Shown here: in pieces, positions 28,531 to 58,283 of the stretch
Numbering within the stretch: the stretch's first letter is position 1
Layout of the letters: each line of letters starts with the position of its first letter
DNA from: a virus
DNA: 64,000 nt
IMG/VR virus record: IMGVR_UViG_3300023084_000004
Reading direction: 5' to 3' (one strand)
The notes under the pieces: generated by a model
What the model was told of the DNA's origin: nothing
The model's input: only the letters and a program-made list of their open reading frames with translations
Database searches by the model: none
Position numbers and translations under genes: made by a program

Positions 28531-28977
28531 ATGCCTTATTCCAAGAAAGTATTAGACAGATTCGAAGCAGTAACTAATAATCCACAGGCACATGGAGTCG
28601 GAAGGTTTGATCCTAACGATCCTACTGTTGCAACTGGATTAACAGGTGCACCTGCGTGTGGCGATGTTATGAAATTGGATTTAAAATTAAATCCTGAGAC
28701 TGAAGTCATCGAAGACGTTAAATTTAAAACTTATGGATGTGGTTCTGCTATCGCTTCAAGCAGTATGTTCGTCGAAATGTTAAAAGGTAAAACTATTGAA
28801 GAAGCAAAATTAATTAAAGATAAAGAAATTGCGGAAGCTTTAGAATTGCCTCCAATTAAAATTCATTGTTCTGTATTGGCAGAAGATTCAATCAAAAGAG
28901 CAATACAAGATTGGGAAGAAAAGAAAGCAGGTCGTAACGAATCGTGGTTGGAAAAAATGACCAAAAAGGAAGATTAA
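28531..28977 (+). CDS. iscU: Fe-S cluster scaffold protein
   Basis: GAPACGDVM, KFKTYGCGSAIASSS, LELPPIKIHCSVLAED (all three conserved Cys). Confidence 0.95.
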   Translation: MPYSKKVLDRFEAVTNNPQAHGVGRFDPNDPTVATGLTGAPACGDVMKLDLKLNPETEVIEDVKFKTYGCGSAIASSSMFVEMLKGKTIEEAKLIKDKEIAEALELPPIKIHCSVLAEDSIKRAIQDWEEKKAGRNESWLEKMTKKED

Positions 28978-28979
28978 AA

Positions 28980-29450
28980 ATGTATGAATATAAAACAAAA
29001 TTATTAAAAGTTATTGATGGTGATACAGTCGATGTAGATATCGATTTAGGTTTTGGTGTATGGTTAAGAAATGAACGTGTACGTATTATGGGAATTGATA
29101 CTCCTGAAAGCAGAACTTCAGATAAAGTTGAAAAACTGTTTGGACTTGCTGCAAAGAAAAGACTAAAAGAATTATTGGGTCCAAATCCAGTTTTGAAAAC
29201 ACAAGTTGGAAAAGGTGGAGAAGACATGAAAGGTAAGTTCGGACGTATCTTAGGCGACTTTACTGTATTCGATGCCAAAAATGACAGATGGTGTTGTGCA
29301 ACAGAAGTTTTAATCGAAGAAGGCCATTGTGTAGAATACTGGGGTCAAGCTAAAGAAGACGTAGCAGATGAACATCTTAAAAATAGAGAAAAACTCTTAG
29401 AAGAAGGTGTCGTCGATAAGAAAGCATACTTTAAACTTTTACCTAAATGA
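28980..29450 (+). CDS. Thermonuclease (SNase)-like protein
   Basis: KVIDGDTVDV...RVRIMGIDTPESR...GKFGRILG. Confidence 0.85.
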   Translation: MYEYKTKLLKVIDGDTVDVDIDLGFGVWLRNERVRIMGIDTPESRTSDKVEKLFGLAAKKRLKELLGPNPVLKTQVGKGGEDMKGKFGRILGDFTVFDAKNDRWCCATEVLIEEGHCVEYWGQAKEDVADEHLKNREKLLEEGVVDKKAYFKLLPK

Positions 29451-29557
29451 GTATTGAAGCATTAGTAGCATATATCATAATTAGTTTGCTTATTCCATTC
29501 TCTTGGTGGGCAGCTGGTAAGCTTCAAGATCATTTTGACAATTAATGAAAAAAACAG

Positions 29558-29659
29558 TTGACATTTGTTATGAAATGATGTATAATAGTACAGTAAATGG
29601 AAATATACACAAAAATAATGAAAAAAACAGTTGACATTTACGAGAAACTGTGATATATT
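29558..29659 (+). promoter_or_regulatory. Two tandem sigma70-type promoters upstream of rpsU
   Basis: TTGACA 29558 / TATAAT 29581 and TTGACA 29631 / TATATT 29654, each with a 17-nt spacer and upstream A-tract. Confidence 0.75.
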
Positions 29660-29667
29660 AATAAAAT

Positions 29668-29961
29668 ATGAGATATAAAGATAACAATGTGCAGGGTACA
29701 AGTGTTTATTTAGCACCAAGGAGAAGGCACCCTAAAGATAAAAAACCTCCTCAACCGATGCCTTTTGATGTAGCATTAAGGAAATTTAAGAAAGCTGTTG
29801 AAAAAGCAGGTATACTTAAAGAGCTTAAGAAAAGAGAATACTACGAAAAACCTACAGCGGTAAGAAAGCGTAAAAAAGCTGAAGGTATTAAAAGACATCA
29901 AAAATCTAGAGCTAAAGATATGGCAATGAGTAATCTACCAAGAGGTTTTAGAAGATACTAA
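29668..29961 (+). CDS. rpsU: 30S ribosomal protein bS21 homolog
   Basis: [38 protein letters not shown]. Confidence 0.9.
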
Positions 29962-29967
29962 GTTACG

Positions 29968-30095
29968 GTTCAGTGGGAATAAACCATGACGGCGAGAGCA
30001 ATCTAGGACCCACGACGGCTACCGAGTCCGGGAGCAACTTTTGAACTACCGATATACTGAGTAGGAATATAACGCCAAAGGACCGACCACTGAAC
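29968..30095 (+). ncRNA. Candidate structured non-coding RNA of unknown family
   Basis: GC-rich island closed by perfect 9-bp helix GTTCAGTGG/CCACTGAAC with nested stems, followed by a T-rich run. Confidence 0.6.
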
Positions 30096-30119
30096 TCTTT
30101 TTAGAATGAAGTTTATATT

Positions 30120-30539
30120 ATGGCAATAATTCGTGGAATGACAACGCTTAACACTCGTAAGCGCAAATTAAAAATTACGAAAGCAAAATATAAAGAGCTT
30201 GAACTGCAATGGCGAGCTTATAATCGTAATATGAAAAGCAAAGGTATGCATAATCTACGATATGATACCCTTGAAGATTATATTGCATATTGCTATGGTT
30301 TGATCAAACATAAACCAGCTTTCGAAAGCAAACCTATTCCAAAACCAGAACCCTATCGAAGAGAAACTGTACATTATCCATCACTCGTTTCTAAAGAAGG
30401 TGGTGGCCACGGTACAAAGAAAGAATCACCTAAATATACTGGGACTCTTATCAAAGGCATTGCTACCATGCATAAAAGCAATGCTGTCCCAGTTATTAAT
30501 CAAAAAGAAGCTGAAGAAATCAGCAGGATGGCGAGATGA
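30120..30539 (+). CDS. Conserved phage hypothetical protein
   Basis: C-terminal YTGTLIKGIATMHKSNAVPV motif. Confidence 0.75.
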   Translation: MAIIRGMTTLNTRKRKLKITKAKYKELELQWRAYNRNMKSKGMHNLRYDTLEDYIAYCYGLIKHKPAFESKPIPKPEPYRRETVHYPSLVSKEGGGHGTKKESPKYTGTLIKGIATMHKSNAVPVINQKEAEEISRMAR

Positions 30540-58208: not shown

Positions 58209-58283
58209 GGCCCGTTCGTCTAGTGGTTAGGACACATGGTTTTCATCCATGCAACAGGAGTTCGATTCTCCTACGGGCTGCCA
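58209..58283 (+). tRNA. trnE: tRNA-Glu (anticodon UUC) with encoded CCA
   Basis: Acceptor GGCCCGT/ACGGGCT, D arm, anticodon stem CATGG/CCATG with loop TTTTCAT, T arm AGGAG-TTCGATT-CTCCT, CCA end. Confidence 0.95.

Follow-up and report, generated by a model that had tools for sequence, protein, structure and literature searches.

A conserved, modular structured RNA beside the bS21 gene of marine T4-like phages

Two lines of earlier work provide background. T4-type phages carry cassettes composed of a promoter and a stem-loop, termed PeSL, which act as terminators and as recombination sites (Arbiol et al. 2010, PMC2839356). Furthermore, the ribosomal protein bS21 binds a structured RNA that is not part of the ribosome, namely, OLE RNA (Wencker, Lyon and Breaker 2025, PMC12054373), and the bS21 site on this RNA mimics the Shine-Dalgarno/anti-Shine-Dalgarno duplex (PMC12054373). 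A published survey of pelagimyophages detected no regulatory RNAs with a riboswitch scanner (PMC7029224). Phages of this type infect SAR11, which is among the most abundant bacteria of the ocean. The stretch of phage DNA analyzed here (64,000 nucleotides, hereafter the window) belongs to a 137-kb IMG/VR virus record, and its gene content, including bS21 and T4-type genes, fits the pelagimyophages of that survey (PMC7029224).

Comparative sequence data indicate that the 128-base island following the bS21 gene of this window encodes a real, conserved folded RNA. The element (29968-30095) is present as a single copy in the virus record, begins six bases 3' of the bS21 stop codon and ends 24 bases before the start of an ORF of 139 amino acids. 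A preliminary description, made from the letters of this DNA, had called it a GC-rich island, which agrees with a GC content of 0.49-0.50 for positions 29950-30099 as compared to 0.24-0.41 in the flanks. The same description had excluded a tRNA and an ORF, and both exclusions stand: ARAGORN identified no tRNA or tmRNA at the element, its sole call in the window being a tRNA-Glu at 58209-58283, the Rfam tRNA models are silent here, and no ORF of at least 30 amino acids overlaps the element on either strand. The two promoters that it had placed before the bS21 gene were also recovered. The features surrounding the RNA are the following, where P1 is the helix that closes the RNA.

29558-29586, plus strand: first sigma-70-type promoter before the bS21 gene, 12 of 12 consensus matches, 17-nt spacer
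29631-29659, plus strand: second sigma-70-type promoter before the bS21 gene, 11 of 12 consensus matches, TG before the -10 box
29668-29961, plus strand: bS21 gene (97 aa), Pfam Ribosomal_S21, E value 1.2e-16
30098-30102, plus strand: U-run two bases after P1, terminator-like together with P1; 4-7 T follow P1 in nearly all relatives
30120-30539, plus strand: gene for a basic protein of 139 aa, phrog_27048, PHROGs E value 1.6e-22

The two bS21 promoters (29548-29660) are near-duplicate cassettes about 73 nt apart that have the A-rich lead-in and the -35 region in common; no promoter was found between the bS21 stop codon and P1 in this genome. Upstream of bS21, at 28531-29450, are NifU/IscU-like and staphylococcal-nuclease-like genes, and the order IscU, SNase, bS21, RNA, phrog_27048 is common to many relatives. 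The 139-aa protein encoded downstream has no Pfam match, and its AlphaFold model (pLDDT 68) is mostly of low confidence or disordered. It has a very basic N terminus and a strongly conserved C-terminal block at residues ~105-125. The phrog_27048 family is widespread, with at least 590 relatives or loci in IMG/VR that have many different upstream genes, and relatives are also present in Delftia, Acidovorax, Synechococcus and Methylophilales phages.

As a single sequence, the element has an unexceptional fold (minimum free energy of -32.8 kcal/mol, z-score of -0.75), and the case for a real RNA is based on comparative data rather than on folding energy. Of 18 loci recovered in a bS21-based search, 8 have the element behind the bS21 gene. 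Scanning IMG/VR and JGI metagenomes for its pattern, and filtering the matches with a covariance model for which 16 sequences were used, brought the set to about 40 distinct homologues, all on contigs of marine T4-like phages; most matches of the loose pattern scan were unrelated coding DNA that was removed by the covariance model. In a MAFFT alignment that was constructed without reference to any structure and subsequently scored for pairing, 97.5% of the model cells were paired, as compared to 88.8% in shuffles, and pairing fell to 26-43% when partners were slid by 1-3 columns. A second scoring, of 36 distinct sequences aligned to the model, gave 95.3% paired cells versus 84.3% in shuffles. 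Thirteen pairs were changed on both sides in the MAFFT alignment, and 13-15 over the two scorings, a number reached by none of 500 shuffles. The compensatory changes among the collected homologues are located in P1, P5 and P4, for which six, three and four double-changed pairs, respectively, were counted in the 36 sequences aligned to the model.

The proposal that the element is a non-coding structured RNA thus receives support from covariation, and further data are in line with it. Among seven bS21-linked loci, the mean nucleotide identity is 0.90 for the RNA and 0.78 for the adjacent gene. The variants differ in length by 4, 20 or 34-35 nt, in hairpin tips and peripheral stems; these indels are not multiples of three, and together with the lack of an ORF of 30 amino acids or more they are not those of a protein-coding gene. 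More than 50 unpaired positions are invariant, and both modules of the RNA are retained among phages with protein identities of 45-70%. The features of the fold, in order of position, are as follows.

29968-29976, plus strand: 5' strand of P1, pairs with 30087-30095; six of ten pairs double-changed among 36 distinct sequences
29977-29994, plus strand: conserved junction of the 5' domain, drawn without a partner; its 3' two thirds are almost invariant in ~35 sequences
29995-30004, plus strand: P2 hairpin with GNRA loop, a peripheral stem of variable length; closing pair swaps between G-C, C-G and U-A
30005-30015, plus strand: conserved P2-P3 junction, nearly invariant
30016-30024, plus strand: tentative P3 mini-hairpin (3 bp; 30016-30018/30022-30024); changes from G-C to G-U only, variable loop length
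30026-30029, plus strand: 5' strand of P5, opens the 3' rod domain; covaries with 30080-30083, three of four pairs double-changed
30030-30045, plus strand: 5' side of the conserved rod internal loops; exchange C30035/G30074, and 30041-30042 covary with 30069-30070
30046-30064, plus strand: P4 hairpin (30046-30049/30061-30064 plus 30050-30051/30058-30059); four pairs double-changed
30065-30079, plus strand: 3' side of the conserved rod internal loops, including 30073-30076; covariation with the 30030-30045 side
30080-30083, plus strand: 3' strand of P5, covaries with 30026-30029
30087-30095, plus strand: 3' strand of P1, pairs with 29968-29976

Several helices had been proposed from the single sequence, and the homologues distinguish among them. 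The outer helix, P1, shows compensatory changes; its top four pairs are nearly invariant, and in the relative L380 an otherwise invariant U-A pair of P1 is replaced by C-G. The GNRA-capped hairpin is present as P2 and corresponds to a variable peripheral stem, since relatives have either a 5-bp stem with other GNRA loops or a hairpin that is about 20 nt longer. The long P2 insert (~30 nt, e.g., L261:150-180), which takes the place of the GNRA hairpin in many members, is almost invariant, with one change in more than 20 sequences; it is more constant than expected of a spacer stem and may be a functional module of its own. The hairpin at 30046-30049/30061-30064 was confirmed by compensatory changes and extended by two pairs to form P4, the loop of which takes up three different inserted hairpins of ~20-35 nt in relatives. 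The small hairpin at 30016-30018/30022-30024 (P3) is plausible but unproven and weakly supported, its changes being of the G-C to G-U type.

Two of the initially drawn pairings were not borne out. That between 30006-30009 and 30026-30029 is contradicted by P5, in which 30026-30029 covaries with 30080-30083, whereas 30006-30009 hardly varies; P5 shows four pair types at one position, is paired in 100% of the 36 sequences and is also present in the single-sequence minimum free energy fold. The inner helix 29991-29994/30073-30076, considered also as a pseudoknot across P5, shows no compensated change and forms C:A in four divergent relatives; 30073-30076 changes from G to A in relatives whose 29991-29994 stays unchanged, and G30074 exchanges with C30035 instead (C:G in 32 sequences, U:A in 2 and G:A in 3). 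Next to this exchange in the rod, positions 30041-30042 and 30069-30070 form non-canonical U:U and U:C in most sequences and C:G in 12-14.

As judged from these alignments, the RNA is modular: P1 provides a frame, within which positions 29977-30024 form a 5' domain and positions 30026-30083 a 3' rod. The modules also occur in other combinations. An RNA of about 99 nt consisting only of the rod, i.e., of P1 plus P5/P4, is found in three relatives (L384:1085-1183, also L385 and L389), where it has its own promoter and occupies the usual junction between bS21 and phrog_27048. In L219:1069-1290, a promoter is followed by a slightly degenerate rod unit, a 5'-domain unit, a U-run and the bS21 gene, and each of the tandem units is closed by its own copy of P1; this arrangement resembles an RNA that is naturally 'split'. 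The divergent members L374, L379, L380 and L382 have kept one domain well and the other poorly.

The RNA is found in several genomic contexts. In the commonest, the order is bS21, promoter, RNA and phrog_27048 gene. In a second context, that of this window and about five relatives, the RNA directly follows the bS21 stop codon. Other T4-like phages represent a third context, with a promoter, the RNA and a 70-aa three-helix membrane ORF, adjoining a gp4-type head-completion gene, and L219, in which the RNA is upstream of bS21, represents a fourth. In one phage group, the RNA is located apart from bS21. The membrane ORF that follows the RNA (70-87 aa, three helices) is located at L244:1407-1619 (minus strand), L330:1259-1483 (minus strand) and L449:833-1096, and in L449 it is directly upstream of a phrog_27048 gene without an RNA. 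In the ESM-Atlas, the clusters closest to it are those of viral 'PnuC family' proteins (score 0.95), and the E value for Pfam NMN_transporter is 0.08. The phrog_27048 gene follows the RNA in almost all bS21-linked relatives, and among the best 80 of at least 590 loci of this family the RNA is found only where bS21 is the upstream neighbor. In the closest bS21 relatives (L002-4), bS21 adjoins the next gene and the RNA is absent, and their 30-34-kb contigs contain no copy elsewhere. Locus L231, with a promoter, the RNA, a terminator and then DNA without clear ORFs, was left out as possibly chimeric.

No indication of a host origin was obtained: 150 further alphaproteobacterial genomes gave no match to the covariance model. 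Among bacterial records, model matches were limited to a metagenome-assembled genome (MAG) bin that also contains several phage-type contigs. This MAG (G001, behind L173) is labelled Rhodobacteraceae and contains two copies of the RNA and several phrog_27048 and phage-type bS21 genes; its phage-type contigs, with T4-like phage genes, are C47, C57, C76, C105, C116, C132 and C183. The bin appears to be contaminated with phage contigs and carries little information on the host. The other 59 pattern matches in genome contigs were dismissed as chance matches in G+C-rich genomes. Records of cultured phages, in a collection from which close relatives may be absent, gave no blastn match, and the Methylophilales phage Melnitz does not have the RNA.

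A perfect sigma-70 promoter, with its -35 and -10 boxes 17 nt apart, precedes the RNA in 32 of the 36 distinct members; it ends at a distance of 4-7 nt from the start of the model, so that the predicted transcription start, ~7 nt past the -10 box, coincides with the first base of the P1 helix. A second phage group has a P1 that is longer by 6-7 bp, and its promoter is shifted outwards by ~7 nt accordingly. At the other end, P1 (9-16 bp, enclosing ~110-180 nt) is followed within 0-5 nt by a run of 4-7 U in nearly all members, and the ORF that follows begins 15-35 nt past this run in most loci and has no separate promoter there. The element had been described as not being a simple terminator. 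The simple terminator scan makes no call at P1 and the U-run of this window, because the 'loop' is about 110 nt; P1 together with the U-run looks like an intrinsic terminator. Based on these predicted signals, the element is probably a small RNA gene that has its own promoter and terminator in most related phages.

The suggested co-transcription with bS21 is plausible for this window, where no promoter intervenes and where contigs from RNA libraries bridge bS21, the RNA and the next ORF, but most relatives have a separate promoter for the RNA; with regard to co-transcription, this genome and a few others are exceptional. Assembled contigs of four salt-marsh metatranscriptomes match the region with an identity of at least 99%; such contigs cannot reveal transcript ends, strand or abundance and may derive from DNA carry-over. 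One RNA-library contig spans 29510-30178 at a depth of 20, as compared to 3.9 for the next contig downstream, and in one run the k-mer depth over bS21 and the RNA is about five times that of genes further downstream. Contigs 29740-30460 and 30021-30309 bridge the RNA and the next ORF. An 83-nt contig with a depth two to three times that of its neighbors starts exactly at 29968, a start that may be due to strain variation and not to an RNA end. These contigs document presence in RNA libraries and are compatible with read-through; given that they bridge into a next ORF that has no promoter of its own, P1 and the U-run would be read through at least partly.

The order of promoter, structured RNA, U-run, ribosome site and ORF in most members is that of a cis-acting 5' leader, i.e., of a riboswitch, a protein-dependent attenuator or a put-like antitermination or stabilizing element, the fold of which would determine if RNA polymerase halts at the U-run or continues into the downstream early genes. 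The long invariant junctions are reminiscent of a pocket for a ligand or a protein, one phage group has a weakly PnuC-like membrane ORF downstream, a gene type that is often controlled by riboswitches, and the bridging contigs and promoterless next ORFs point in the same direction. In addition, the 5' strand of P1 pairs alternatively with 30009-30013 (5 bp) in all predicted folds of partial transcripts. The homologues, however, do not support this alternative pairing as a switch, since compensatory changes are absent and L380 has a mismatch. A separate expression platform is also not apparent, and a P1 of 9-16 bp that is G+C-rich at its top appears too stable to be tipped by a ligand. The rod-only versions retain the P1 frame, and the genes downstream are of three unrelated types across the loci. 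In at least five distinct members (L022, L112, L379, L380 and L382), the RNA and the gene that follows are set apart by a small hairpin plus a promoter. Here and in some relatives, the RNA is located at the 3' end of the bS21 message. A leader function, the main rival of the explanation favored below, is consequently regarded as possible, although on the unlikely side.

This 3' position introduces another possibility, namely, that the element is the terminal structure of the bS21 message: a terminator, insulator or nuclease block within a mobile cassette of the PeSL type, which would shuffle early genes and have no further function. Where the RNA is linked to bS21, its promoter or P1 itself comes within 6-70 nt of the bS21 stop codon, and inspection by eye revealed no hairpin in between, so that a bS21 transcript would probably end at P1 and the U-run. 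Exchange of cassettes is suggested by the disagreement between the similarity patterns of the RNA and of the next gene (0.98 versus 0.78 in one pair, 0.84 versus 0.90 in another), and the PeSL elements provide a precedent in T4-type phages (PMC2839356). For such a role, however, a hairpin alone would suffice, and more than 50 invariant unpaired positions and two conserved modules would be left unexplained. The stem-loop of PeSL is simple, and some members are not downstream of bS21. We therefore consider it improbable that the element is a terminator or cassette structure and nothing else.

A new catalytic RNA, self-cleaving or other, with a role in processing early transcripts would fit the multi-helix junction, the invariant junction nucleotides, the dispensable peripheral stems and the presence of the element as an optional intergenic insert in phages, all of which are also seen in small ribozyme classes. 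No known ribozyme model matches, however, no conserved candidate cleavage site was recognized, and a promoter at the base of P1 combined with a terminal U-run leaves no reason for cleavage. Catalysis is accordingly seen as very improbable.

The explanation that we tentatively favor is a discrete small RNA that acts in trans, perhaps with bS21 or with the adjacent basic protein. The element would be the gene for a discrete, highly structured small RNA carried by marine pelagimyophage-type T4-like phages. Its long closing helix, P1, would join the 5' and 3' ends and frame a 5' domain that combines long invariant junctions with two small hairpins, and an irregular 3' rod composed of P5, internal loops and P4. 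In most phages an early sigma-70 promoter dedicated to the RNA would start transcription at the base of P1, and the transcript would end at the U-run after P1; in this window that promoter appears to have been lost, and the RNA would ride on the bS21 transcript, closed by P1 and the U-run. Since the RNA would form the 3' end of one message and the 5' part of others and is cut off from its neighbors elsewhere, we infer that it is a molecule of its own and not the switch of a single gene.

The invariant unpaired bases and the rod rich in internal loops suggest a protein-binding RNA, which would act in trans and most likely within a translation-related early module. Candidate partners would be bS21 and/or the product of the adjacent gene, which is basic and largely disordered; the tie to bS21 and to translation is deduced from the gene neighborhood. 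The view that this is a novel non-coding RNA linked to bS21 holds, whereas nothing supports its being a tRNA-like decoy. A more specific and rather unlikely version of the trans-acting RNA is a ribosome-directed phage ribonucleoprotein (RNP), in which the RNA would bind phage bS21 and perhaps its disordered neighbor as a subunit or decoy of a translation-takeover particle. Such a particle would load bS21 onto SAR11 ribosomes, or withhold it from them, early in infection and, if true, would constitute a new class. A new class of riboswitch or ribozyme would be equally novel. Mimicry of the platform helices of 16S rRNA was rejected, as local alignment to an alphaproteobacterial 16S rRNA was no better than that of shuffles.

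The RNA combines more than 50 invariant unpaired positions with a covarying fold, swappable modules and a strong early promoter, and constraint of this degree is typically seen in ribozymes, ligand sensors or RNP cores. The recurrent position beside phage bS21 provides a testable handle on how phage-encoded ribosomal proteins are used.

Among catalogued RNAs, no counterpart was identified. At the gathering score, Rfam 15 returned only the tRNA at 58209 for the whole window. With permissive filters and E values up to 10, three variants (the copy of this window, the long form and that of another locus) gave nothing relevant in a search that covered manA, wcaG, 6S, SRP, tmRNA, riboswitches and ribozymes, and the novelty with respect to Rfam that had been anticipated is thereby sustained. 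By these comparisons, the RNA is an uncatalogued family and a candidate for a new Rfam entry. It resembles manA and wcaG (RF01745, RF01761) in that all are carried by marine T4-like phages and have a conserved multi-stem fold and no known function; it differs from them in sequence and structure, with a P1 frame, two modules and a promoter at the base of P1. The small stable RNAs rnaC and rnaD of phage T4 likewise belong to a T4-type phage and are of unknown function. Unlike the present RNA, they are located within the tRNA cluster and are not framed by a promoter and a terminator, and homology was rejected, as the family model, with filters off, scored less than 10 bits on the T4 region.

Riboswitch and attenuator leaders share with this RNA the order of promoter, conserved fold, U-run, ribosome site and ORF, the invariant junctions and, as expected of a riboswitch aptamer, a conserved fold supported by covariation. 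In contrast to such leaders, the present RNA has a very long P1 and no apparent separate terminator/antiterminator platform, and some copies are 3'-terminal or separated from the next gene by a promoter; whereas a riboswitch would always be the 5' leader of functionally related genes, this RNA is followed by three unrelated ones. The PeSL cassettes (Arbiol et al. 2010, PMC2839356) are similar in combining a strong early sigma-70 promoter with a terminator-type stem and in their location in a plastic early region with signs of exchange between phages. PeSL consist of a promoter and a simple terminator hairpin, whereas here the promoter stands in front of a large multi-helix structure, a covarying RNA of 130-200 nt with two modules. 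With regard to OLE RNA, a duplex of the Shine-Dalgarno/anti-Shine-Dalgarno type was not found in the present RNA, in which P4 covaries freely and the alignments of which, inspected by eye, revealed no copy of the 16S tail; what the two have in common is that each is a structured RNA linked to bS21, in the present case through its genomic neighborhood with the phage bS21 gene.
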